Source: an uncultured Geobacter sp. | Lineage (GTDB): Bacteria > Desulfobacterota > Desulfuromonadia > Geobacterales > DSM-12255 | Assembly: GCA_964432205.1 (NCBI GenBank) | Contig: CAYSMK010000032.1 | Location: 1-59,409 of the forward strand | Direction: 5' to 3' | DNA length: 59,409 nt | The notes under the pieces: generated by a model | Database searches by the model: none | What the model saw: the letters and a program-made list of their open reading frames with translations, nothing else | What the model was told of the DNA's origin: nothing | In this document: positions 1,237-24,632 of the stretch, piece by piece | Layout of the letters: every line of letters starts with the position of its first letter | Position numbering within the stretch: position 1 is the stretch's first letter | Translations under genes and position numbers: made by a program

Positions 1237-2399
1237 TAGTGTCTTGTGCGGTTAGTTGTATCTAAGTATATTTGGATGTGTTATAGTGCCTTTCATGGCA
1301 CGGACAACAGAACTTATTGAATTGACTACCGATGACCGACAAGCGCTTGAAGGGTTGCTTCGGTCACCAAAGACGGCCCAGGGTATGGCATTGCGCGCTC
1401 GTATCGTCCTAATGTGCGGCGCCGGTGAGACTGTTGAAGCAATAGCTGCTACAGTCGGGACTTCAACCAAAGCGGTTTACAAATGGAGGAACCGCTTTAA
1501 AGAATCCGGTCTTGACGGCCTTTCAGACCTGCCTCGCTCTGGTCAGCCCAAGAAGCTCACGGAACAGAAGATCAAGGATGTCTTGACGCTGGCTGTGGAG
1601 CGGATTCCCCATGAGGCAACCCATTGGAGTTTACGTCTCATGGCCAAGTATGCTGGCATCACGACTTGGCAAGTCCGCCAGATTTGGGAGGCCGCCGATC
1701 TGAAGCCTCATCGTATAAAGAGCTTCAAGATCAGCAGTGATCCACAGTTTGCCGACAAGGTTGTCGATGTCGTCGGTCTTTACATGAGCCCTCCCGACAA
1801 TGCGATGGTCCTGTCGGTTGACGAGAAGACCCAGATTCAGGCGCTTGACCGGACGCAGCCGATGCTGCAACTGAAACCTGGCCAGATTGAACGTCGCACC
1901 CACGATTACAAACGTAACGGCACAATGAGCCTATATGCCGCGTTTGACATCCTGACCGGTGAGGTCATAGGACGGGTGACCAAGCGGCACAGAGCCAAGG
2001 AGTTCCTAGACTTCCTGCGTCAGATAGAGCGATCAACGCCAAAAGAGCTTGATCTGCACATCATCCTGGACAACAGCAGCACCCATAAGACCGCAGAGGT
2101 GCTGAAGTGGCTGGCGGGGCATCCCCGGATATCCCTTCATTTCACACCCACCAGCGCCTCATGGCTAAATGCGGTGGAAAGCTGGTTCTCCCAACTGGAG
2201 CGGCGATCGATCTACCGAGGAGTGTTCAGCAGCGTCACTGCATTACGGAAAGAAATTCACCGTTTCATTGAGGCTCACAATGCAACCAGCGCAAAGCCGT
2301 TCAAGTGGACCAAGAGCGCAGCAGCAATTATTGAGTCTGTTCAAAGAGCAAAATCAAGTTCCGGCATTACTGGAAAGAACTAACCAAACGGGACACTAG
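1237..2399 (+). mobile_element. IS630-family insertion sequence (about 1.16 kb) with TA target-site duplication
   Basis: Single DDE transposase ORF. 8-bp terminal inverted repeat CTAGTGTC (1236-1243) / GACACTAG (2392-2399), so the element GTGTC...GACAC is flanked by TA on both sides, as expected for IS630/Tc1-mariner. Confidence 0.7.
1295..2383 (+). CDS. IS630-family DDE transposase
   Basis: N-terminal HTH region (MARTTELIELTTDDRQALEGLL...AIAATVGTSTKAVYKWRNRF), then a DDE region with VLSVDEKTQIQAL ... HIILDNSSTHK ... SWLNAVESWFSQL. Length and order are typical of IS630 Tnp. Start set at the MARTTEL methionine inside the 1256 ORF. Confidence 0.9.
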   Translation: MARTTELIELTTDDRQALEGLLRSPKTAQGMALRARIVLMCGAGETVEAIAATVGTSTKAVYKWRNRFKESGLDGLSDLPRSGQPKKLTEQKIKDVLTLAVERIPHEATHWSLRLMAKYAGITTWQVRQIWEAADLKPHRIKSFKISSDPQFADKVVDVVGLYMSPPDNAMVLSVDEKTQIQALDRTQPMLQLKPGQIERRTHDYKRNGTMSLYAAFDILTGEVIGRVTKRHRAKEFLDFLRQIERSTPKELDLHIILDNSSTHKTAEVLKWLAGHPRISLHFTPTSASWLNAVESWFSQLERRSIYRGVFSSVTALRKEIHRFIEAHNATSAKPFKWTKSAAAIIESVQRAKSSSGITGKN

Positions 2400-2697: not shown

Positions 2698-4305
2698 TCA
2701 ACCCCTAACCGTAGCCTTCCTCACTCCCTCCCAATCCAGACTAAACCTTGCAAGGTACTTTCGTAGGCGGTCTGCGTCGTTGTTGCTTTTTTTCCCCTGC
2801 CGGGAAACGGCAAAAAGCTTTCGACCTGCCTCCGAGAGCGTTGCGGCGCTTCGGCAAATTCGGAGCACTTCGGCTAGCTGGACCCGGTCGAAGCAGTCGA
2901 GTCCGGCTGCCGTTTCCTCGTCCAGAACCGCCTGTAGCAGGGAACTGCCTGGATCGGCCCCCCCGCCTTCCCAAGTAGACCGCAGACGTCCAATCTCTTC
3001 TTCGACGACTTCGACGGTTATTCGCCCCGCCGGCGCCAGCGTCGCCATTCGTCTGACCGCACCGTTCAGATCGCGAAAGTTTGCCGGCCAACGGGCCTCG
3101 GGGCTCGCTGCAAATTCAAGAAAGCGCCTTCTTGCCTGCTGGTTGAAGGTGATGCGGTTGCCACTTCGCTCCGTAAAACGCTCCAGTTCGTAATCAAGGT
3201 TCGGTTCAATGTCCTCAGTTCGCTCTGCAAGCCCTGGAAGGGAGAAGGTCCAGAGGTTGATGCGGGCAAGGAGGTCTCCGCGAAACCGCCCCTTTGCAAC
3301 TTCCTGACCAAGGTCGCGATTGGTGCCACACAGGAGCTGAAAATCACTCTGGGCTTCGGAATCGGAACCAAGTGGGAGGAAGCGATGCTCCTCGATCGCC
3401 CGCAGCAGCATTGCCTGCTCATCGAGGCCGAGCTCGCCGATCTCATCAAGAAACAGCATCCCTTTGTCCGCCGACCGCAACAGCCCGGGGCGATCCTGTA
3501 GTGCTCCGGTGAACGCCCCGCGACGATGGCCGAACAGTGCCGACATGGCGCTGTCTCCACGCAGGGTTGCGCAGTTTACCTCCACAAAGGCCCCGGGGAT
3601 CTGTCGGCGGGCCTTTTTTAGTTCAAAGATTCGACGGGCAAGTTGGGATTTCCCTGCGCCGGTGGGGCCTGTCAAGAGGATCGGATCGATCGAGTTTATG
3701 GCAACACGCTCGACCTGCTCAATCAGGGCATTGAATCGCGGGCTGCGCGTCTCGATGCCGGACTTCAGGAACGAGATGTCGTCCCGTTTCTCCTGGTTAA
3801 AACGGGTGGCGATACGGTCATATTTCGAGAGGTCCAGGTCGATGACGGCGTAGTCGCCGGGCACCTTTTTCTCTGGCCCGTTCGACGGACCGGTCTGGAT
3901 CAACTTGGCCGGGAAATAGTGGGCCTCGGTGAGGAGGAACAGGCAGATTTGGGCAACATGGGTGCCCGTGGTGATGTGCACCAGATACTCTTCCTGTTCC
4001 GTGTCAAAGGTGTACCCTCTGGCGAAGTCGTGCAGTGCGGCAAAGACCTCCTCGAAATCCCATGGATTCCTGAACTCGATGCAGTGGGGAACTACCTCGG
4101 TCTCAGGGGAGACTTGGTGGATGTCGCCGATGATCCGCTTGAGGAGCGATGCGTAGCGGCGCTGGTAGATGAGGTCGAAGCGGTTTACTAGGAGCTCTTC
4201 GTGCTGACAGAGGGATACGGTTGGCCGCCACCGCTCCCACCGTTTGGGTTCCTTGCCGCTGTCCAGGATCGGGCCGAGTAGGCCGATGACTACCGTTCGT
4301 TTCAT
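2698..4305 (-). CDS. rtcR: RtcR, sigma-54-dependent transcriptional activator with N-terminal CARF domain
   Basis: Near-colinear similarity to E. coli RtcR throughout. Shared segments include the N-terminal CARF region (TVVIGLLGPILD...RWRPTVSLCQHE), Walker A LLTGPTGAGKS, the GAFTGA motif (HRRGAFTGALQDR) and the C-terminus SRQGKKSNNDADRLRKYLARFSL. Divergent from the rtcA/rtcB operon. Confidence 0.95.
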   Translation of the reverse strand: MKRTVVIGLLGPILDSGKEPKRWERWRPTVSLCQHEELLVNRFDLIYQRRYASLLKRIIGDIHQVSPETEVVPHCIEFRNPWDFEEVFAALHDFARGYTFDTEQEEYLVHITTGTHVAQICLFLLTEAHYFPAKLIQTGPSNGPEKKVPGDYAVIDLDLSKYDRIATRFNQEKRDDISFLKSGIETRSPRFNALIEQVERVAINSIDPILLTGPTGAGKSQLARRIFELKKARRQIPGAFVEVNCATLRGDSAMSALFGHRRGAFTGALQDRPGLLRSADKGMLFLDEIGELGLDEQAMLLRAIEEHRFLPLGSDSEAQSDFQLLCGTNRDLGQEVAKGRFRGDLLARINLWTFSLPGLAERTEDIEPNLDYELERFTERSGNRITFNQQARRRFLEFAASPEARWPANFRDLNGAVRRMATLAPAGRITVEVVEEEIGRLRSTWEGGGADPGSSLLQAVLDEETAAGLDCFDRVQLAEVLRICRSAATLSEAGRKLFAVSRQGKKSNNDADRLRKYLARFSLDWEGVRKATVRG

Positions 4306-4349
4306 ATAATATCCTATAAATTATTATAAACATGTATAACATTTCTAAC

Positions 4350-4420
4350 CCGCCGATCGCCACAAAAACGTGCCCTAAATCTATGTTGCACCCAAAAACG
4401 TAGTTACTACGAAAAGTTAC
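4350..4420 (+). promoter_or_regulatory. candidate RtcR enhancer (UAS) region
   Basis: AT-rich stretch just upstream of the -24/-12 element. Contains direct repeats AAAAACGT (x2) flanking an imperfect palindrome GTGCCC-N13-TTGCAC. Confidence 0.3.
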
Positions 4421-4445
4421 AGGTAATTGCGGGCGACAATGGTCT

Positions 4446-4463
4446 GCTGGCACGGCAGTTGTA
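4446..4463 (+). promoter_or_regulatory. candidate sigma-54 (-24/-12) promoter for the rtc operon
   Basis: CTGGCACGGCAGTTGTA: the -24 TGGCACG is perfect. The -12 reads TTGT instead of the consensus TTGC, one mismatch in the GC dinucleotide. Correct position and orientation relative to the bEBP gene rtcR. Confidence 0.4.
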
Positions 4464-4590
4464 ATTCCCGATATCAGAAACGCCACTGCGACCGGGCCGG
4501 CGGCGCATGGTCCTCCGACATCTGAACGGCAGTTACCGGGACGATGCGGTCAGGGGCATGTGTTCCTCACCGGGTTCTGACGAAGGTCAT

Positions 4591-4668
4591 GGCGGCGTCT
4601 GGTTAGCTCAATGGTAGAGCACCGTGCACCACACGGGAGTTGCAGGTTCGAGTCCTGCGCCAGAAACG
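4591..4668 (+). ncRNA. tRNA-like element (non-canonical; Y-RNA/YrlA-like tRNA mimic) in the rtc operon leader
   Basis: Perfect D-arm GCTC-AATGGTA-GAGC (4606-4620). Perfect T-arm GCAGG-TTCGAGT-CCTGC (4642-4658). Anticodon-like arm CCGTG-CACCA-CACGG has only a 5-nt loop. The acceptor pairing GTCTGGT/GCCAGAA is imperfect and there is no 3' CCA. Overall the element resembles tRNA-Trp-like sequence. Confidence 0.45.
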
Positions 4669-5004
4669 GGCTTTTAACCCGTTACAGCCGCTTCGGCGGC
4701 AGACCACGCCCGAAGGGGGCGGGGCGCACCGGGGCGAACCGGTTGGGTATCCGCCGGCAATCACCACTGTTCATGCGCCTTGCGGCACGCGGATTCCGCC
4801 GGTGGGGAAGCGACATGAAGGGGGAGCGGATTACCATCGCCCAGCCGGCAGTTGGATAAGCCGGAACAGATGGTGACTTAGACTCCCCGCTTCATGCCAC
4901 CGAGCCACCGGCTCAAGGGTTGTCCCGCGCAGTCAGTGCGGCCCCGGAAACGCCTCGCCCCCTGACGGCACTTGCTATTACCTTGGCAGCAAAGGAGGTT
5001 CACC

Positions 5005-6111
5005 ATGTACGGCATCGGGTATGTAAAGGTTCACTCCCATGAAAAAGGGCTGCTCTTCAGGGATAAAGAGTTCAGGGGAGTACTGGGCACAGGGCGACAT
5101 TGGTTCTTCGACCCGACCAACGCGGTCCGGGTGGACGTGGTTTCCCAGAGGTCGCCCTGGCTGTCTCACGAGGCACTCGATCTCATCGTGAAGTCGGGCG
5201 CCTTGGAGGATGAGGCCATGGTGCTGGACCTGAAGGATCATGAACGGGCACTGGTCTGGATTGACGGCCGCTTCGAACGGGTTCTCGGCCCAGGACTCCA
5301 TGCGCTCTGGACTCGGCTCAAGGAGGTCAGGGCAGAGGTAGAGGACGCCCGTTCTGTTCGTTTCAGCCATAAGGATATGAGCACGATCCTCGCCTCCACC
5401 TCTTCCGGGGAGCAGCTTGACAACGTGATGGTCGAAGAAGGGGTTGCGGCCGTGTATTTCAAGGATGGAGAATACGTGCAGACGCTTGGCCCGGGGCGCT
5501 ATCTTTTCTGGAAGCAGATGGGTAAGGTTCGGGTCCAGCATGTTGACCTTCGGGAAACAGTGCTGGACGTGGGTGGGCAGGAGATAATGACCGGTGACAA
5601 GGTTACGCTGCGGTTGAACGCTCAGGTGACCTACCGGGTGACCGACCCGCACCGGTCGGTAACTGCCGTGGAGAACCTCTCCCAGTCCCTGTACCGGGAA
5701 GCCCAGTTGGACCTGAGGGCCATAATCGGAGGCTATGAGCTGGACAGGCTGCTGGAGGGAAAGGACCAATTGGCCGGAGAGGTGGAGCTGGCGTTGACCC
5801 GACGTGCGCCGGAATTCGGCATCAAGATAATCGGTGTGGGGATTCGCGACCTGATCCTCCCGGGCGAGATGAAGGAGCTGCTGAACAAGGTCATCGAGGC
5901 CCGCAAGGCCGCCGAGGCCAACCTCATCGTACGCCGGGAGGAGACCGCCGCCATGCGCAGCCAGGCCAATACAGCAAAGCTGCTGGAAAACAACCCGACC
6001 CTTATGCGCTTGCGGGAACTGGAGGTGTTGGAAAAGGTGGCCGGCAGCTCGGAGCTGAAGGTGGTTCTGGGAGAGAAGGGTTTAGCCGACAGGGTGGTCA
6101 ATCTGCTGTAA
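5005..6111 (+). CDS. SPFH/band-7 (stomatin/prohibitin/flotillin/HflKC-like) domain protein, first gene of the rtc operon
   Basis: SPFH core (DKVTLRLNAQVTYRVTDP ... LDLRAIIGGYELDRLL ... ILPGEMKELLNKVIEARKAAEANLI) plus a C-terminal coiled coil. AAGGAGG RBS 8 nt upstream of the ATG at 5005. The upstream in-frame ATG at 4972 has no RBS. Confidence 0.8.
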   Translation: MYGIGYVKVHSHEKGLLFRDKEFRGVLGTGRHWFFDPTNAVRVDVVSQRSPWLSHEALDLIVKSGALEDEAMVLDLKDHERALVWIDGRFERVLGPGLHALWTRLKEVRAEVEDARSVRFSHKDMSTILASTSSGEQLDNVMVEEGVAAVYFKDGEYVQTLGPGRYLFWKQMGKVRVQHVDLRETVLDVGGQEIMTGDKVTLRLNAQVTYRVTDPHRSVTAVENLSQSLYREAQLDLRAIIGGYELDRLLEGKDQLAGEVELALTRRAPEFGIKIIGVGIRDLILPGEMKELLNKVIEARKAAEANLIVRREETAAMRSQANTAKLLENNPTLMRLRELEVLEKVAGSSELKVVLGEKGLADRVVNLL

Positions 6112-6182
6112 CATGAAGTAACAATATGGAGTCTGCCGGATGTCTGCGTTCAGTCTTTCAATTCAACAGAAGGAGTATCACA

Positions 6183-7232
6183 ATGATTGCAATCGACGGT
6201 TCACATGGGGAGGGGGGCGGCCAGATCCTGCGGTCGGCATTGGCCCTCTCTCTGGTCACCGGGAAACCGTTCCGCATAGAGAATATCCGTGCCCGCCGGA
6301 AAAAGCCGGGACTGATGCGCCAGCATCTGACGGCGGTGAATGCCGCGGTTGAAATCGGTGCGGCACGTGTCTCGGGGAACACAATCGGATCTCAGGAGCT
6401 AACCTTTGTGCCCGCCGCGCTACGCTCCGGCCAGTACCGGTTTGCCGTCGGCACTGCCGGGAGCTGCACCCTGGTGCTGCAAACGGTTCTGCCGGCACTG
6501 GTTCTGGCCGACGGGCCATCGAAGATACTGCTCGAAGGCGGAACCCACAACCCCGCTGCGCCCCCCTTCGACTTCCTTGCCAACGCGTTTCTGCCGCTGC
6601 TGAACCGGATGGGGCCGTCCGTTACGGCAGTGCTGGAGCGTCCCGGTTTCTACCCGGCCGGCGGTGGCCGTATGCGGGTGAGGGTGACGCCGGCTCGGCG
6701 GTTGGTACCACTCCACGTCCTCGAACGTGGTGCGGTCGTCGGTCGCACTGCCCGGGCAACCGTTGCCCGCCTGCCGCTCTCCATTGCCGAAAGGGAGATC
6801 GCCGTGGTTAGGGAGAAACTGGCGTGGGAAGACGACTGCATGAAGGTCGGGGAAACGCCAGACTCCAGCGGTCCGGGGAATGTCCTCGTTCTCACGGTGT
6901 CGAGCGAACAGGTCACCGAGGTATTCACCGGGTTCGGCGAATAGGGGGTGAGCGCCGAGACCGTGGCTGGCCGCACCATCAAGGAAGTGCGGGAATATCT
7001 GGCCTCTGGGGTTCCAGTGGGGAGGCATCTGGCAGACCAACTATTACTCCCCCTGGCACTTGCGGGCAAAGGGGCATTTTGCACCCTCTCTCCATCTGCG
7101 CACACGACCACCAACATAGAGGTGCTGCGGCTCTTTCTCGATCTGGACGTGCAAGTGCAACAGCAGGATGAACAGGGATGGCTGATCTCGATCGGGGCTG
7201 GAGAATCACTGGTACGCAGCCAAGCCATATAA
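6183..7232 (+). CDS. rtcA: RNA 3'-terminal phosphate cyclase RtcA, interrupted by an in-frame TAG at 6942-6944
   Basis: MIAIDGSHGEGGGQILRSALALS...KPGLMRQHLTAV...YRFAVGTAGSCTLVLQTVLPAL is colinear with E. coli RtcA. The reading frame is unchanged across the stop: upstream ...FTGFGE, TAG, downstream GVSAETVAGRTIKEVREYLAS. E. coli has GEKRVSAEVV here, so the stop replaces a Lys/Arg codon. AGGAG RBS before the ATG at 6183. Confidence 0.85.
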
Positions 7233-7256: not shown

Positions 7257-8420
7257 ATGAAATACATTGATACTGAACGGGTAGTAATAAAAAGCTGGTG
7301 CAACGAGCCCGAGGGAAACGCCCTCGCCCAAGCCCGGAACCTTGCCAACCTTCCCTTTGTTTTTCGGCAGGTCTGCCTGATGCCCGATACCCATGAAGGT
7401 TACGGCATGCCCATCGGCGGGGTTATTGCGACCGAAGGAGCCGTGATTCCCAATGCCGTCGGCGTCGATATCGGATGCGGCATGCTGGCGATGCAGACAA
7501 GCCTGGCGGAGATCGACCTGCCGGCCCTGAAGAGGATCATCGGGACGATGCGTGAAACAATCCCGGTCGGATTCGAGCACCACAAGGAGCCCCAGGACGA
7601 AAGTCTGATGCCGCCGATGGACGATCCTGCGCTCTACCCAGAGGTAAGTCGACAGTACCGCTCTGCCTGCAAACAAATCGGTACCCTCGGGGGAGGAAAC
7701 CACTTCATTGAGGTGCAGAAGGGCTCCGATGGCCATATTTGGTTCATGATTCATTCCGGCAGCCGTAATTTCGGGCTCAAAGTGGCGAACCGCCACAACC
7801 GGATCGCCGTCGACCTGAATGAGCGATGGCATGTTGCGGTCCCGAAAAAATGGGAGCTGGCCTTCCTGCCGATTGAAACCAAAGAGGCCTCCGTCTATCT
7901 GCGGGAGATGCGCTACTGCCTTGACTTTGCCTTGGCTAACCGGCAGCTCATGGCCAGCCGGGTCCGCGATGCGTTCCGTGACAAAATCCCGGACGTCACC
8001 TTTAGCGATGCGATCAACATCCATCACAACTACGCCGCGTTTGAGAACCATTTCGGGCAAAACGTCCTAGTCCACCGCAAGGGGGCGACCTCGGCCCGGG
8101 AAGGGGAAATGGGGATCATTCCTGGCTCGCAGGGGACGGCCAGCTACATCGTGCGGGGGAAGGGAAATCCGGACAGTTTCACGAGCTGTTCCCACGGCGC
8201 CGGCCGAAGGATGGGACGGCAGGCGGCGATCAGGAATCTCGACCTGGAAACGGAACAGAAGGCCCTGGAGGAAAAAGGGATCCTCCATGCCCTGAGGGGG
8301 AAGAGGGACCTGGAGGAGGCGGCAGGGGCGTACAAGGATATCGACTTGGTGATGGAAGAGCAGCAGGATTTGGTAGATATCGTTGTACGTCTTGAACCAC
8401 TGGCGGTCATCAAGGGGTAG
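7257..8420 (+). CDS. rtcB: RNA-splicing ligase RtcB
   Basis: RtcB hallmarks: metal and GTP site residues (LMPDTHEGYGMPIGG, GGGNHFIEV, HHNYAAFENH, CSHGAGR). Length 387 aa. Confidence 0.95.
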   Translation: MKYIDTERVVIKSWCNEPEGNALAQARNLANLPFVFRQVCLMPDTHEGYGMPIGGVIATEGAVIPNAVGVDIGCGMLAMQTSLAEIDLPALKRIIGTMRETIPVGFEHHKEPQDESLMPPMDDPALYPEVSRQYRSACKQIGTLGGGNHFIEVQKGSDGHIWFMIHSGSRNFGLKVANRHNRIAVDLNERWHVAVPKKWELAFLPIETKEASVYLREMRYCLDFALANRQLMASRVRDAFRDKIPDVTFSDAINIHHNYAAFENHFGQNVLVHRKGATSAREGEMGIIPGSQGTASYIVRGKGNPDSFTSCSHGAGRRMGRQAAIRNLDLETEQKALEEKGILHALRGKRDLEEAAGAYKDIDLVMEEQQDLVDIVVRLEPLAVIKG

Positions 8421-8856: not shown

Positions 8857-8925
8857 TGAGCCGTTTGAGCCCTTTATGAGCCCTTTGTTTCGCTTGAGCC
8901 GTTTGAGCCCTTTATGAGCCCTTTG
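8857..8925. repeat. 31-bp perfect direct repeat x2 (7-bp spacer) overlapping the 3' end of the DUF4062 gene
   Basis: TGAGCCGTTTGAGCCCTTTATGAGCCCTTTG occurs at 8857-8887 and 8895-8925. Each copy contains three TGAGCC sub-units. On the minus strand both copies encode KGLIKGSNGS, so the C-terminal coding sequence is duplicated. Confidence 0.9.
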
Positions 8926-10364
8926 AGAGCCAGGATATAATGTGTGCCTTTCCCAGTGGTGCCGACTTTTTTGATAATCCCTCTTTTAACCAGATCGTCC
9001 AAGTCACGGGAGGCCGTAGGTTTTGATACCGCGAACCTCTCCTGGTATTCTGAGTTTGTCATCGATATTCCTGATTTAACCAGCATTACAGCCTTTGTTT
9101 GGCGTTCGCTCAGTTCAAATCCAGCCAGCACTTGCGGCGTTAGCCAATCCCTCCAGATCGTAGAGACAAACGACCCACTGCGCATCTCAAATTGGGGTTC
9201 AGGGAGACCCGCTTCTTGGCAAAGCTCTATCATGGTCTGTGTGCCAGACCCTATCCGCTCGATGTAGCGGGCAAGGTAGAGAGGTTCGGCAATGAGGGGA
9301 TTATAGGGGACAGAGGGATGATCGCCCCGAAGGCCCTCAAGCGTCAGGTTGCCCGGCAGCATCCCTGGATTCCAAATCTCCAGACGATCAGAGAAAAGAC
9401 GGACTTCCACGGAAGCGTTACTGTGGTAGTCTCTATGGGCGATTGCGTTGACAATGGCTTCGCCTACGGCGTCCGGAGGAAGTTCGTAGGTGGCAGGCGC
9501 TACGTTGCTTTCGGACCGAACACCGATTGAGCGATTGATTTTGCTCAGAACAAAGTCCCTTGCCTGGTCTGCCTGCTGGAATAGATCTCCGTCGTAAACC
9601 TGCATTGACGCAAATGGCCGGCGGAAGACAGTACCGTGGCAGTGGACGCACTTCGTTACCGCGGTCTGGTGAAATTTTTGAGGGTTCGTCCCGAACAGTA
9701 ACAACGCCGCATTGGTAGGTCTGCCATCGTCAAGAAGGTGAAGATGAGTGAGCAATGCCGTCGTACTGGTGTTTGGCTTGAGGGGAAAGTTCCGCTCGCG
9801 TCGAGCCACGTCGAGGAACCACTCTACTCGTTTGCGTGAGATATCCTTTTGTGACGACTGACCACTGGTCGATGTGTCAAAAGGCGGTACCTGCAACGCT
9901 CCCAATCTGTCCAGATGTTCGACTAGACTGGCATATACCTCGGACATCAAAGCACTGATGCCCTCAACCCTACGCCGAGTCAGCTCACCGCCGATTTTAC
10001 TGACAAGCTGTTGCATCTTCGGGTTCCGGTGCTTGTCATCGGAACCCCAGACATAGACGAGTCTAGTTTTCCCATGGCGTCCGGCATGATCGTATTCGCG
10101 CTCGGTCGGACAAATGCCTTCGGCATCTTCAAACCCGTAATCATATCCGAAAATGCCAAGGTAGACATCGCACCGCTCAACTTCTTCAAGATAAACTTCA
10201 TCGGCACGTCGGCTGTTTGCCGGCATCTCTTCAAAGAGGAATACTTCGGAAATAAACCGGCGCAACACCGCATCCCCAAGCAGAAATGCTTTAAGATCCC
10301 GCCGAGCTTGCGAGAATTCCTTCTGGACACTGCTGATGAATACTTTCAGTCTGATAGGTGGCAT
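8874..10364 (-). CDS. DUF4062-like N-terminal domain + Schlafen-like AlbA_2 domain + HATPase_c_4 (RecG C-terminal-like)/wHTH protein
   Basis: N-terminus KVFISSVQKEF...CDVYLGIFGYDYG matches the DUF4062 pattern. The middle (VEWFLDVARRERNFPLKP...ALLLFG) looks AlbA_2/Schlafen-box-like. Next is APATYELPPDAVGEAIVNAIAHRDY...GSGTQTMIELCQEAGLPEPQF, typical of HATPase_c_4 'RecG-like' regulators. The C-terminus is a wHTH. Lower GC than neighbours. Confidence 0.7.
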   Translation of the reverse strand: MPPIRLKVFISSVQKEFSQARRDLKAFLLGDAVLRRFISEVFLFEEMPANSRRADEVYLEEVERCDVYLGIFGYDYGFEDAEGICPTEREYDHAGRHGKTRLVYVWGSDDKHRNPKMQQLVSKIGGELTRRRVEGISALMSEVYASLVEHLDRLGALQVPPFDTSTSGQSSQKDISRKRVEWFLDVARRERNFPLKPNTSTTALLTHLHLLDDGRPTNAALLLFGTNPQKFHQTAVTKCVHCHGTVFRRPFASMQVYDGDLFQQADQARDFVLSKINRSIGVRSESNVAPATYELPPDAVGEAIVNAIAHRDYHSNASVEVRLFSDRLEIWNPGMLPGNLTLEGLRGDHPSVPYNPLIAEPLYLARYIERIGSGTQTMIELCQEAGLPEPQFEMRSGSFVSTIWRDWLTPQVLAGFELSERQTKAVMLVKSGISMTNSEYQERFAVSKPTASRDLDDLVKRGIIKKVGTTGKGTHYILALKGLIKGSNGSSETKGS

Positions 10365-10786: not shown

Positions 10787-12325
10787 TTGGTAAGAGCAGT
10801 AGCCGATAAGGCTGCTCGCCAGGGTCAGGTCATCGGACTGCTCATGCCATCCGAAGACGATGAAGATCAGGCCCCATGGGAGCGAACCCCTTCGGGGAAA
10901 ACGACGGCGCGGGTCAAAGGGAAACTGCCAAAGCAGGTAAAGGCTGTCGTAGCCCAACACATCTTTGTTCCCAAGAAAGGGCTGCCTTCGGCATTTCTTA
11001 TCCGGATCAAACGGCTGGCCGCTTTTCAGAACCCGGAGTTCTACAAGAAGCAGAAGATGCGACTATCCACCAACCTAACCCCACGGGTCATCACTTGCTT
11101 CGAGGAACTGCCGGAATACATTGCCATCCCCCGCGGATGCCTTGATGCCTTGGCGGCTCTGTTCGACGAGCACAATATTCAGCTTTCTCTTGAGGATAAG
11201 CGTCAGGAGGGAGTTCCTGTAGCCTTCAGCTTCCATGGGACCCTCAAAGACAACCAGCAGCAAGCGGTCGACGCACTGCTGGACCATGATATCGGCATCT
11301 TTGTGGCTCCTCCCGGTCATGGCAAGACGGTCGTGGGTTCTTACCTAACTGCTGCGCGAAAGTGCTCCACACTTGTTCTTGTGCACCGCAAGCCTCTTTT
11401 GGACCAATGGGTTGCCCAACTGAGCAGCTTCCTCAACGTGCCAAGAAAAGCTATCGGCACAATTGGCTCAAGTAGAAACAAGCCGAATGGCGTCCTTGAT
11501 GTCGCCATGATTCAGAGCCTGGTCCGAAAGAACGAGGTGAGCGACCTGGTAGCAGGATACGGGCAGATTATCGTGGACGAGTGCCATCATCTTCCTTCGG
11601 TATCGTTTGAGCGGGTTCTGGCTGAGGTGAAAGCCCGATATGTCGTTGGTCTCACCGCCACTCCTTACCGGCGTGATGGGCACCAGGCCATCATTCATTT
11701 CCAGTGTGGTCCGACCCGTTTTAGCCTAAACCGCAGACAACAGATTGAGACAGAGGACTTCACCCGTCGGCTGATCCTTCGAGAAACCGGCTTTGGTCTT
11801 TCTGGCGAGGCAGAACTGAGCATTCAGGAACTCTATGCCCGGCTGGCGGCAAACCGCGAACGTAATTTGCTGCTCCTCGAAGACGTAAGACAAGCACTCA
11901 AACAAAAGCGATCACCCATCCTGCTCACCGAAAGGAAAGACCATCTGGAGTTCTTTGCTGAAAACCTTCGGGACGAGGTACGTCATCTGATAGTCTTACA
12001 AGGGGGGATGGGGATCAAACAACGGCGGGCGGTCATGGCAAAGCTCGAGGCAATTCCCGATGGAGAGGAACGGTTGATTGTTGCCACAGGACGGTACATC
12101 GGCGAAGGCTTTGATGACGCCAGGCTGGACACGCTCTTTCTGACCTTGCCTTTTTCGTGGAAGGGGATGCTTGTGCAGTATGCTGGCCGACTGCACCGAA
12201 CGCACTCCGAGAAAAATGAGGTACAGATCTACGATTATGTGGACAGCGCGGTCCCGATGTTGGCCAAGATGCACGCCAAGCGAATGCGCGGCTTCAGGGC
12301 AATGGGGTATGAGCAGATTCCTTAA
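10787..12325 (+). CDS. SF2 DExH-box helicase (ResIII-like ATPase core + helicase C domain)
   Basis: Motif I VAPPGHGKTV, motif II IIVDECHHLPS, motif III GLTATPYR, motif VI QYAGRLHRT. 512 aa with no other recognisable domain. Divergent from the DUF4062 gene with about 420 bp of shared intergenic DNA. Confidence 0.85.
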   Translation: MVRAVADKAARQGQVIGLLMPSEDDEDQAPWERTPSGKTTARVKGKLPKQVKAVVAQHIFVPKKGLPSAFLIRIKRLAAFQNPEFYKKQKMRLSTNLTPRVITCFEELPEYIAIPRGCLDALAALFDEHNIQLSLEDKRQEGVPVAFSFHGTLKDNQQQAVDALLDHDIGIFVAPPGHGKTVVGSYLTAARKCSTLVLVHRKPLLDQWVAQLSSFLNVPRKAIGTIGSSRNKPNGVLDVAMIQSLVRKNEVSDLVAGYGQIIVDECHHLPSVSFERVLAEVKARYVVGLTATPYRRDGHQAIIHFQCGPTRFSLNRRQQIETEDFTRRLILRETGFGLSGEAELSIQELYARLAANRERNLLLLEDVRQALKQKRSPILLTERKDHLEFFAENLRDEVRHLIVLQGGMGIKQRRAVMAKLEAIPDGEERLIVATGRYIGEGFDDARLDTLFLTLPFSWKGMLVQYAGRLHRTHSEKNEVQIYDYVDSAVPMLAKMHAKRMRGFRAMGYEQIP

Positions 12326-24302: not shown

Positions 24303-24414
24303 CACAAAAAAGCCGGGGCCGAAGATAAGGTGACATTTCGGCAACCCGGCTGTCTCAGTGAGACCCTATAGGCTTTCCGCCCCACCCTCGCGGATGGTTG
24401 AGTATTATCGTTTA
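24303..24414 (-). ncRNA. structured RNA element copy 1 (ends in an intrinsic terminator). Candidate sRNA or cis-leader upstream of the LysM-LDT gene.
   Basis: Minus-strand reading: GNRA-capped hairpin CCAUCC-GCGA-GGGUGG, hairpin GUCUC-ACU-GAGAC, then GC-rich two-tier hairpin AGCCGGG...CCCGGCU followed by UUUUUUG at the 3' end (about 24303). Confidence 0.45.
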
Positions 24415-24520: not shown

Positions 24521-24632
24521 CAACAAAAAAGCCGGGGCCTAATATCGCGTGATATTTCGGCAACCCGGCTGTCTCAGTAAGACCCGTAGGCTTTCCGCCC
24601 CATTCTCGCGAATGGTTAAGTATTATCGTCTA
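24521..24632 (-). ncRNA. structured RNA element copy 2 (about 85% identical to copy 1) with candidate sigma-70 promoter
   Basis: Same three hairpins with compensatory changes (CCAUUC-GCGA-GAAUGG versus CCAUCC-GCGA-GGGUGG in copy 1). Terminator hairpin plus U6. On the minus strand just upstream, TTGACA-N16-TAGGAT (about 24652-24680). Confidence 0.5.

Follow-up and report, generated by a model that had tools for sequence, protein, structure and literature searches.

The Rtc repair operons are well studied in bacteria, but the RNAs and proteins that accompany them are still unexplained. One such RNA is YrlA, a tRNA mimic of about 100 nt that adjoins rsr; it is circularly permuted, its acceptor stem-loop is closed, and its ends form the Ro-binding stem (PMC4201824; 10.1101/312249). 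Another arrangement was predicted by Burroughs & Aravind in 2016 (NAR 44:8525), where RtcB adjoins a Band-7 protein and a tRNA-like ncRNA (b7a-tRNA) with no rsr, and this Band-7/b7a-tRNA module is considered analogous in function to Rsr plus YrlA (10.1101/312249). Since 2016 the pair has been no more than a prediction. Rfam holds no b7a-tRNA family, and in the literature searched the name occurs only in the Wang/Wolin preprint.

The window analyzed here, the whole stretch of 59,409 nt from an uncultured Geobacter sp. (GCA_964432205.1, contig CAYSMK010000032.1), contains an identical arrangement. The rtcR gene (2698-4305, minus strand) is divergent from the operon and encodes a sigma-54 activator with an N-terminal RtcR/CARF domain, scoring 813 bits against NCBIfam NF038308 RNA_repair_RtcR (cut-off 650) and matching Pfam RtcR and Sigma54_activat. 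An IS630 transposase lies on the far side of rtcR. On the plus strand, the first ORF of the operon encodes an SPFH/Band-7 protein of 368 aa, hereafter slipin (5005-6111; Pfam Band_7, E = 1.4e-32), with the Shine-Dalgarno sequence AGGAGG at 4993-4998. It is followed by rtcA, the RNA 3'-phosphate cyclase gene (6126-7232; Pfam RTC and RTC_insert, NCBIfam NF003246), with a reading frame broken by an in-frame TAG at 6942-6944, and by rtcB, the RNA ligase gene (7257-8420; Pfam RtcB, E = 6.4e-115), both on the plus strand. A further operon ORF of 114 aa gave no match in the family search. The initial annotation had noted that rsr is absent, and indeed no TROVE (rsr/Ro60) match was found among the operon ORFs (slipin, rtcA, rtcB and the 114-aa ORF). 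The order rtcR, divergent leader, slipin, rtcA, rtcB is shared by the window and 13 close relatives with no TROVE called, so that in all of them a Band-7 gene accompanies the RtcB repair operon in place of Rsr/YrlA.

Between the divergent genes, a tRNA-like element at 4597-4667 (plus strand) ends 338 nt before the slipin ATG at 5005, on the same strand. Since the first ORF is an SPFH/Band-7 gene, the conserved partner of the b7a-tRNA, the element matches the family predicted earlier, the band-7-associated tRNA-like RNAs. It is not there by chance, as about 90 further loci of several phyla have the same element, with compensatory changes, in front of the orthologous gene.

A sigma-54 (-24/-12) promoter is found at 4448-4462 (plus strand), being the sole such match in the window, and ends 135 nt upstream of the tRNA-like element. 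The initial annotation had already placed a promoter of this type here; it is present and conserved, but its spacing is TGGCAC-N5-TTGT and not TGGCACG-N4-TTGT as first read. The TGGCA and TTG blocks are invariant across 16 aligned related leaders, and a conserved sigma-54 promoter lies 7-20 nt upstream of the 5' domain described below. From the promoter sequence, transcription would start near 4474. A terminator scan found no terminator-like site between the RNA and the slipin ORF in the window. We suggest that the RtcR-dependent promoter would produce the RNA as the 5' part of a slipin-rtcA-rtcB transcript, and the earlier proposal of a long structured leader under RtcR/sigma-54 control is supported.

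The tRNA-like domain folds as a cloverleaf, all on the plus strand, with a D arm GCTC-AATGGTA-GAGC (4606-4620), an anticodon-like arm CCGTG-CACCA-CACGG with a 5-bp stem and a 5-nt loop (4622-4636), a variable loop of 5 nt and a T arm GCAGG-TTCGAGT-CCTGC (4642-4658). The acceptor GTCTGGT/GCCAGAA forms six pairs, one of them G-U, plus a G1·A72 mismatch, and is followed by ACGGG with no CCA. Every feature of this domain that had been pointed out initially was found in place. Rfam tRNA (RF00005) matches at 41.8 bits (gathering score 29; E = 1.6e-5 for the whole window), and ARAGORN makes its only tRNA call in the 59 kb here, an aberrant "tRNA-Gly (acc)" with the anticodon at position 32. Across 90 aligned homologues, pairing is kept at 99-100% in the D, anticodon and T stems, where compensatory changes are numerous. 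The 15:48 pair covaries, and U8, A14, G18, A21, T54, T55, C56, A58 and C61 show little or no variation. The nucleotides that hold a canonical tRNA in its tertiary fold, including G18G19 and T54-Psi55-C56, are kept. The comparative alignment and the Rfam scan, both suggested at the outset, thus gave a conserved, covarying element in orthologous leaders and a match to the tRNA model with none to a Y RNA.

The anticodon loop behaves differently across the family, with 32 different triplets and lengths of 5-8 nt. A 7-nt loop is found in 72 of the 90 members, keeping the tRNA-like flanks Y32, R37 and A38 around highly variable triplets, with U33 in just 41 of the 72, while the collapsed 5-nt loop occurs in 8 of 90, the clade of the window. 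Decoding is excluded in the window by the 5-nt loop and the missing CCA. Judging from these sequences, the element mimics a tRNA but does not decode, in agreement with the initial view that it is no canonical functional tRNA.

It could be asked whether this is simply an ordinary or decaying tRNA gene near rtcR by chance, left over from a tRNA array or an integration site and functionless in itself. The ARAGORN and Rfam tRNA calls and the IS630 transposase beyond rtcR would fit, as would the annotation of the intergenic gene beside rtcR in Pseudomonas aeruginosa as tRNA-Arg. Invariant tertiary nucleotides and compensatory stems at a fixed position across phyla contradict such decay, in addition to the loop and the missing CCA, and we give this explanation hardly any credence. 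The P. aeruginosa gene is PA4581.1, a CCA-less "tRNA-Arg4" located in PAO1 between rtcR (PA4581) and the PA4582-PA4585 rtc cluster; its RNA was detected by qRT-PCR, and it is treated there as an unusual tRNA-Arg whose 7-nt loop carries CGU, without being related to Band-7 or b7a-tRNA (PMC13637947). In strain PA14, the rtc locus contains the Band-7 gene PaFlo8 (PA14_60630) (PMC13086221). PA4582 would be the PAO1 counterpart of PaFlo8, and PA4581.1 is probably, from its position, the P. aeruginosa counterpart of the window element.

The initial annotation described the element as Y-RNA-like, which holds for the tRNA mimicry and the functional analogy to YrlA but not for the architecture. [quoted passage not shown] YrlA, too, has been proposed to partner a ring or cage protein. 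However, the window element has the normal D-anticodon-T order, is not circularly permuted, lies inside a larger RNA and has slipin as its neighbor. The Y RNA covariance models gave no match at E <= 10 in 4250-5100, a YrlA-specific model not necessarily being among those of Rfam 15. For these reasons of order and model match, the element is not YrlA-like in architecture, and the relation would be one of functional analogy, as in the literature (10.1101/312249). The 5' motif of YrlA has been defined as GNCGAAN0-1G (PMC4201824), and the sequence GACGAAGG at 4579-4586 (plus strand) fits it, by resemblance only. An exact match occurs in only 20 of 95 distinct family 5' domains (4.3 expected), and as a possible Ro-binding motif of the family it is retained here as a weak resemblance.

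According to the covariation, the tRNA-like domain is the central part of a structured RNA of about 490 nt (about 4481-4962), in the order 5' domain, tRNA-like domain, two hairpins and 3' domain. Profiles were built with nhmmer and alignments with MAFFT, and covariation was compared with slide and shuffle controls. The 5' domain (4481-4597, plus strand) was recovered by RNAalifold on two alignments (A2 and A3). Its outer helix pairs 4481-4493 with 4586-4597, and its inner helices pair 4497-4499 with 4571-4573 and 4502-4517 with 4547-4566; the conserved motifs are GGGCC..CGGCGCA, GTGTTCC and GGGTTCTGACGAAGG. Over 35 sequences of several phyla, paired cells make up 83%, compared with 31-43% with the partners slid, and the covariation score is 0.42 against about 0.1, a value reached by none of 500 shuffles. 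With an iterated nhmmer profile, 91 of the 124 eligible loci have this domain in front of slipin, and a simple D-arm/T-arm pattern is present in 94 of the 99 loci with a 5'-domain match.

Directly 3' of the tRNA-like domain is the hairpin H1, ACGGG-CTTTTAA-CCCGT (4666-4682, plus strand), conserved with compensatory changes among the relatives in alignment A2, and planctomycete loci have an equivalent hairpin at this place. The second hairpin, H2, GCCGC-TTCG-GCGGC (4687-4700, plus strand), closes with a GC pair in 6 of 14 sequences and with AU in another 5. Both hairpins had been noticed initially, and both covary in relatives.

The 3' domain (4715-4962, plus strand) is held by a long-range helix L1 (4715-4723/4954-4962) and by the helices L2 (4765-4768/4935-4938), L3 (4774-4778/4927-4931) and L4 (4782-4790/4917-4925), which surround a variable interior (4791-4916). 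Over 58 sequences of several phyla, the proportion of paired cells is 91%, compared with 38-49% after sliding, with 269 double-change cells against 41-67 in the slid controls; the covariation score of 0.536 (about 0.13 in controls) was reached by 0 of 500 shuffles. RNAalifold on 14 sequences instead gave a local hairpin CCGCGCA/TGCGG at about 4925-4941, in which changes are mostly one-sided, with 1 double change in 6 pairs. The broader alignment favors the long-range L2-L4, and the two may be alternatives. Of the 124 eligible loci, 85 have the 3' domain in front of slipin by its nhmmer profile, and the 5'- and 3'-domain profiles match almost nowhere else in 1.53 Mb. A permissive Rfam scan of 4250-5100 gave nothing credible besides RF00005, all other hits being far below gathering scores, and both domains are absent from Rfam 15. 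No description of the 490-nt RNA was found in the literature searched. Compared with the b7a-tRNA prediction, the tRNA-like element is here the core of a larger RNA with covarying flanks, and most loci are without Rtc genes; the overlap with the original 2016 account is uncertain. Two other readings of the leader were rejected. T-box-like pairing of the anticodon loop in cis was discarded since 4- to 6-mers complementary to the loop are no commoner than with permuted loops, and a protein-coding leader since gene calls are inconsistent between relatives and the helices covary.

A structured RNA at this place could also be a cis-regulatory leader, a 5' UTR acting as an operator on the slipin (and rtcAB) mRNA, whose translation or stability would depend on it, for example if the slipin protein bound its own leader or a tRNA-binding factor did. 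The RNA would then require no function apart from this. The RNA is immediately upstream of the ORF and on the same strand, with a median distance of 59 nt from L1 to the ATG, and with no terminator between them in the window the position fits a 5' UTR equally well. The minimum-free-energy fold can even pair 4506-4516 with the SD/AUG region, but this pairing competes with a 5'-domain helix supported by covariation. About 490 nt with an invariant tRNA core across phyla far exceeds what known autoregulatory operators need. In addition, the RNA precedes rtcB instead of slipin at two loci (L011 and L043), and a T-run follows L1 in 12 of 77 loci, where the RNA may be a separate transcript. We regard a purely regulatory leader as unlikely.

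In over 170 related loci, the tRNA-like element tracks the slipin gene and not Rtc. ARAGORN makes a same-strand tRNA or tRNA-like call within 800 nt upstream of slipin in 71 of 109 loci. By tblastn, rtcR is absent from 74 of 80 genome loci (the 80 analyzed from roughly 600 genome hits), most of which retain the element upstream of slipin, and at most Planctomycetota and Acidobacteriota loci rtcR, rtcA and rtcB are all missing. Downstream of slipin, no gene is conserved except rtcA (20 loci). The unit was seen in Desulfobacterota, Planctomycetota and Acidobacteriota, and in single loci labelled Verrucomicrobiota and Omnitrophota; one of the loci (L172) is that of Syntrophotalea carbinolica DSM 2380. 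From this gene content, the link with RtcR, RtcA and RtcB is secondary. No close slipin was found in 50,697 phage records, PLSDB records gave slipin matches of at most 37% identity, and IMG/VR gave three loci, one with a 36-tRNA array, too little to consider the module mobile.

This distribution bears on the role proposed in the initial annotation, a sensor feeding back on RtcR or a dedicated substrate of RtcB/RtcA. As 74 of the 80 loci have no rtcR and most of them keep the element, this is not the core function of the family. A broader version is that the mimic is cut by anticodon nucleases or binds them and acts as a decoy or sensor, soaking them up, serving as RtcA/RtcB substrate or yielding fragments with 2',3'-cyclic phosphate that activate RtcR. 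The 7-nt loops with tRNA-like flanks and variable triplets (72 of 90) are as expected of a diversifying mimic, and the family is linked to tRNA repair genes and tRNA arrays. RtcR responds to damaged tRNA, and a role as competitive inhibitor has been proposed for YrlA (PMC7790460). On the other hand, most loci have none of rtcR, rtcA and rtcB, and the collapsed 5-nt loop of the window clade imitates an anticodon loop poorly. In the window, the RNA would be made only after RtcR fires, as its promoter position indicates, and so would be a product of induction, not an upstream sensor. The conserved 5' and 3' domains and the obligatory slipin partner are also left unexplained, and we consider a decoy or sensor improbable.

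At some Planctomycetota and Acidobacteriota loci, arrays of 10-40 tRNA genes are directly upstream, and planctomycete modules directly follow long arrays on the same strand, at their 3' end. The L-arrays of cyanobacteria, tRNA arrays co-regulated with rtcB, are a comparable case, although the L-array paper makes no mention of a slipin link and the window has a single non-decoding tRNA-like domain with no array. Transcripts punctuated by tRNA structures are known from mascRNA and from mitochondria. The fold could be such a signal, recruiting RNase P or RNase Z to the primary transcript and so freeing the slipin mRNA from the tRNAs upstream or from the 5' domain. Its place after the planctomycete arrays agrees with this, as do the 18 of 90 members that retain N73-CCA, 11 of them also with an acceptor of at least 6 bp, and RNase P cleaves the M. 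smegmatis YrlA, whose stem has 7 bp (PMC4201824). However, the acceptor is mostly a 4-bp stub across the family, with only the four inner pairs conserved and the outer three formed in 27-46% of sequences, and the window has G1·A72 and no CCA. A processing signal would need neither the conserved flanking domains nor the anticodon arm, and this reading appears highly improbable to us. Given the 18 members with CCA, the tRNA-like part may nevertheless be excised as a separate small RNA in some lineages, instead of working within a large one.

The conserved partner of the RNA is the slipin, whose 368-aa homologues share 63-90% identity across phyla. Its AF2 model (pLDDT 81) has two extra N-terminal beta repeats, an SPFH domain and a long helix, with no membrane segment or anchor. 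The best Foldseek E-values are with the membrane SPFH proteins stomatin and HflK/C, over the part comprising the SPFH domain and helix, while the major vault protein is the only full-length structural match (chains aligned over 410-469 columns, E = 8e-11 to 2e-8, TM about 0.4). As modelled, the slipin resembles a miniature major vault protein. In its domain order the model would follow that protein, from beta repeats through an SPFH "shoulder" to a long helix, and a structured RNA is associated in both cases, the eukaryotic vault comprising major vault protein, vault RNA and TEP1. The slipin differs in its length (368 aa against about 860), in grouping with stomatin and HflK/C by sequence and best E-values, and in having no TROVE protein in its operon. 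To our knowledge, all solved SPFH proteins and the vault protein form oligomeric rings or cages, and by analogy the slipin probably forms a soluble ring or cage.

The sequence data show what the RNA is, how it is conserved and folded, which gene it accompanies and where its promoter lies; protein binding, a cage, any processing and the biological role are conclusions drawn from them. We favor, with moderate confidence, a reading in which the RNA is the RNA partner in a Band-7 particle that would act when tRNAs are damaged, a function that we infer from structure and gene linkage. The RNA would be bound by the SPFH/Band-7 protein encoded just downstream. Its invariant tRNA elbow and L-shape would be held by the slipin, or would serve as a tRNA-like handle for tRNA-handling enzymes, with the particle as a whole serving as scaffold or cofactor when the cell responds to tRNA damage. 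The particle would be coupled to RtcA/RtcB repair in the window lineage and to tRNA replacement, through the large tRNA arrays, in Planctomycetota. The fuller picture, with the b7a-tRNA as the core of an ornate RNA of about 0.5 kb that is a subunit of a soluble vault-like SPFH cage in tRNA repair or, with stress-type tRNA arrays, in tRNA replacement, is put forward tentatively, as a possibility we rate below even.

What is added to the 2016 prediction is that the conserved unit consists of the slipin gene and a large structured RNA, with a covariation-backed secondary structure whose coordinates can be used for probes, deletions and constructs. The unit is combined either with RNA-repair genes or with large tRNA arrays, two ways of restoring a pool of damaged tRNAs. 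Should the particle model be true, it would account for the oddly annotated P. aeruginosa "tRNA", and the unit would be a bacterial counterpart of the vault and Ro-Y ribonucleoproteins dedicated to tRNA damage, offering a tractable bacterial relative for vault and Ro-Y biology.

The interval 4306-5004 is intergenic and divergent, with rtcR (2698-4305, minus strand; NCBIfam RNA_repair_RtcR, 813 bits) on one side and the gene that opens the operon on the other. The sigma-54-like promoter of the initial annotation is present as a -24/-12 site at 4448-4462 (TGGCAC-N5-TTGT), the N5 spacing being the sole correction; the window has no second match of this kind, and the site is kept in 16 aligned related leaders. 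Three genes are recognisable in the operon: a 368-aa slipin of the SPFH/Band-7 type (5005-6111), rtcA (6126-7232) and rtcB (7257-8420). The slipin is the first ORF, which had been left unnamed and proved to be the key. As previously stated for rsr, no TROVE/Ro60 gene was found by family searches of the operon ORFs. The RNA lies between the conserved RtcR-type promoter and the Shine-Dalgarno (SD) of the slipin, and a scan of the window found no terminator-like site between promoter or RNA and this SD.

An in-frame TAG at 6942-6944 breaks rtcA (…TGFGE*GVSAE…). At this position six relatives encode F, L, M or W (TTT, TTG, ATG or TGG), so the TAG is one substitution from a sense codon, and beyond it the frame stays open as far as 7232. 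A recent nonsense mutation, a sequencing error or a read-through site could each account for it. Just past the 3' end of rtcR there is an IS630-family transposase (1256-2383, plus strand; NCBIfam, 283 bits). Right after rtcB we found a protein with DUF4062, HATPase_c_4 and a weak MarR match (8874-10364, minus strand), followed by a ResIII/DEAD helicase (10787-12325, plus strand), and this neighbourhood looks defence-like or repair-like. Two tandem c-di-GMP-I riboswitch aptamers are found on the minus strand at 24337-24413 and 24556-24631, about 140 nt apart, with Rfam scores of 42.6 and 49.4 bits against a gathering score of 35.

The single tRNA that ARAGORN calls across the 59 kb covers 4597-4667 and is labelled 'Gly (acc), anticodon at position 32'; the Rfam tRNA model matches 4597-4666 with 41.8 bits. 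A textbook D arm (4606-4620) and a T arm (4642-4658) are read directly from the sequence. The anticodon-like stem of 5 bp closes a 5-nt loop (CACCA), the last base of the 5-nt variable loop is able to pair with A15, and the acceptor consists of six pairs and a G1·A72 mismatch, with CCA absent. The arms, short loop, imperfect acceptor and missing CCA had all been described in the initial annotation and hold in every detail, as do the two downstream hairpins (4666-4682 and 4687-4700). It had also proposed Rfam comparison with Y RNAs, whose models gave no match in the scan of 4250-5100, the tRNA model being the part that stood. The YrlA motif GNCGAAN0-1G occurs at 4579-4586 of the window, yet just 20 of 95 relatives carry it, which makes it a weak resemblance more than a family feature.

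The window fits exactly the description of b7a-tRNA (band-7-associated tRNA) in the discussion of Wang et al. (bioRxiv 10.1101/312249), where the class is presented as a computational prediction of 2016, apparently interchangeable with Rsr/YrlA, for which experimental validation was never reported; the account of the 2016 prediction in that discussion mentions the tRNA-like RNA alone. The element is a genuine, conserved feature that looks functional, and it belongs to this class as described there. We are highly confident of its identity and architecture as a b7a-tRNA within a larger RNA. In Pseudomonas aeruginosa PAO1, a gene annotated as tRNA-Arg4 (PA4581.1), without CCA, with an odd D loop and detectable by qRT-PCR, lies between rtcR and the PA4582-PA4585 rtc cluster (PMC13637947, 2026). 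In strain PA14, the SPFH protein PaFlo8 (PA14_60630) is found within the rtc locus (PMC13086221), and we infer that PA4582 is its PAO1 counterpart. Neither paper ties its observation to b7a-tRNA, and the class carries a wrong tRNA annotation in one model organism or more.

In an alignment of 90 distinct homologues, the D, anticodon and T stems are paired in 100%, 98.9% and 99.6% of cells, with 355 double-change cells versus 45-95 in slid controls. This covariation contradicts the reading of the element as a meaningless tRNA remnant, which we consider highly improbable. U8, A14, G18, T54, T55, C56, A58 and C61 are invariant, A21 is present in 89 of the 90, and the 15:48 pair is G:C in 45 and A:U in 25. 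The anticodon loop ranges from 5 to 8 nt, with 7 nt in 72 homologues and 5 nt in the 8 that form the clade of the window; the 7-nt loops contain 32 different anticodon triplets, and U33 in 41 of 72. The four inner acceptor pairs are formed in 77-96% and the three outer ones in 27-46%. N73-CCA is found in 18 homologues, where chance would give about 1.4; of these 18, 11 also have at least 6 acceptor pairs. The family thus keeps the tRNA L-shape and elbow; what it does not keep is decoding or, in most lineages, an end that could be charged. The tRNA-like part may be excisable in a minority of the family; a role as a processing signal is improbable. T-box-like pairing in cis was rejected, since the anticodon loop has no excess complementarity to any part of the RNA.

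Two loci have an extra tRNA-like element between the 5' domain and the b7a domain, resulting in a tandem pair (L062, 7495-7651; L035, 7450-7606). In loci L102 and L139, identical in this stretch, the tRNA-like domain apparently lacks the D arm: only anticodon-like and T arms are recognisable after a preserved 5' domain.

The initial annotation had suggested aligning related rtc leaders, and in those of 14 relatives conserved blocks run from the promoter to the SD, RNAalifold predicting 88 pairs, 46 with compensatory changes. The 5' domain (4481-4597) comprises the helices P1 (4481-4493/4586-4597), 4497-4499/4571-4573 and 4502-4517/4547-4566. In 35 sequences from several phyla, 83% of its cells are paired versus 31-43% with slid partners, and its covariation score of 0.42 (control about 0.1) was reached by none of 500 shuffles. 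The 3' domain (4715-4962) is closed by helix L1 (4715-4723/4954-4962), with L2 (4765-4768/4935-4938), L3 (4774-4778/4927-4931) and L4 (4782-4790/4917-4925) around a variable interior. Here 91% of cells are paired versus 38-49% when slid (58 sequences), with 269 double-change cells versus 41-67 and a covariation score of 0.536 versus about 0.13. Shuffled versions of 4470-5010 fold less stably than the single native sequence (z = -3.5). Strong selection acts on the structure of the RNA. Neither domain has a model in Rfam 15.

Loci L165 and L166 carry about 145 extra nt in the variable interior of the 3' domain, with all conserved helices intact; the relative with this insertion is a close one, its slipin being 84% identical. 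Twelve of 77 loci (L007, L009, L012, L013, L023, L039, L044, L050, L065, L096, L099 and L120) have a T run between the 3' strand of L1 and the ATG of the slipin, directly after L1 in about half of them. In these lineages the RNA might stop at that point and be a transcript of its own.

Of 124 eligible slipin loci, iterated nhmmer profiles run on both strands of 1.53 Mb detected the 5' domain in 91, the 3' domain in 85 and both in 73. Practically all matches sit upstream of a slipin and on its strand: the RNA is genetically tied to slipin. That it acts only as a cis-acting leader, or as an autoregulatory operator, is a possible but unlikely explanation.

The related loci came from genomes (80), metagenomes (80), close relatives (13) and a viral collection (3), and the homologues of the 368-aa slipin share 63-90% identity across phyla. 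Close relatives (L081, L161-L173) all have the layout of the window: rtcR, a divergent leader of about 700 nt, slipin, rtcA and rtcB. The genome loci are mostly from Planctomycetota and Acidobacteriota, and in most of them tblastn found no rtcR, rtcA or rtcB near the slipin. Among 109 loci with enough upstream sequence, 71 have a same-strand tRNA or tRNA-like call up to 800 nt upstream of the slipin, and 17 genome loci have 10-40 same-strand tRNA genes, the last of them just a few bases upstream of the conserved RNA. Downstream of the slipin no gene is conserved, save rtcA in 20 loci. Hence the tRNA-like RNA and slipin together form the stable unit, with Rtc genes or tRNA arrays as alternative add-ons.

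In planctomycetes, arrays of 17-40 tRNA genes stop a few bases before the 5' domain, the tRNA-like element and the slipin (L002, L003, L005-L007, L009, L010, L017, L022, L024, L029, L031 and L035). L002 and L003 are on one contig (CAWDRV010000004.1), about 50 kb apart, being two array-plus-slipin copies in one genome. Many arrays have a gap of about 0.7-1.2 kb between tRNA-His and a 71-nt tRNA-Trp. No close slipin was found in 50,697 phage records. A 94-kb sequence classed as viral (L174; IMG/VR UViG_3300007072_000340) has 36 tRNA genes followed by a slipin; it may come from a prophage, or be part of a chromosome that was misclassified.

In the AlphaFold model of the slipin (mean pLDDT 81), two additional five-stranded beta repeats at the N-terminus accompany the SPFH domain and a helix of about 60 residues, and there is no hydrophobic anchor. 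The best Foldseek E-values are with stomatin, HflK/C, prohibitin, erlin and flotillin, all of which build large rings or cages. Alignments along the entire model are confined to chains of major vault protein (410-469 columns, E 8e-11 to 2e-8). The predicted fold is compatible with a soluble oligomeric shell.

We suggest that RtcR activation would produce a transcript whose first ~490 nt fold into the 5', tRNA-like and 3' domains, and that this RNA, attached or processed, would join the slipin oligomer. The tRNA-shaped module, exposed or enclosed, would connect the particle to tRNA-handling enzymes or damaged tRNAs, helping RtcA/RtcB in the window and accompanying spare-tRNA arrays elsewhere. 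We give such an RNA-slipin particle an even chance. The initial annotation had suggested, as examples, a substrate or decoy for RtcB/RtcA or a sensor feeding back on RtcR. A nuclease decoy or such a sensor is doubtful, the sensor idea being weakened because most family loci lack RtcR and the RNA here would itself be a product of RtcR activation. In spirit the Ro-independent reading of the initial annotation was correct, but the Band-7 partner was overlooked and too much weight was put on the link to Rtc.

The larger story beyond class membership is plausible and still unproven. Compared with the 2016 class as known from a secondary description, the present analysis adds a covariation-supported architecture of a ~490-nt RNA around the tRNA mimic, shows that slipin, not Rtc, is the constant partner, and connects the RNA with tRNA arrays and with a predicted vault-like fold of the protein.
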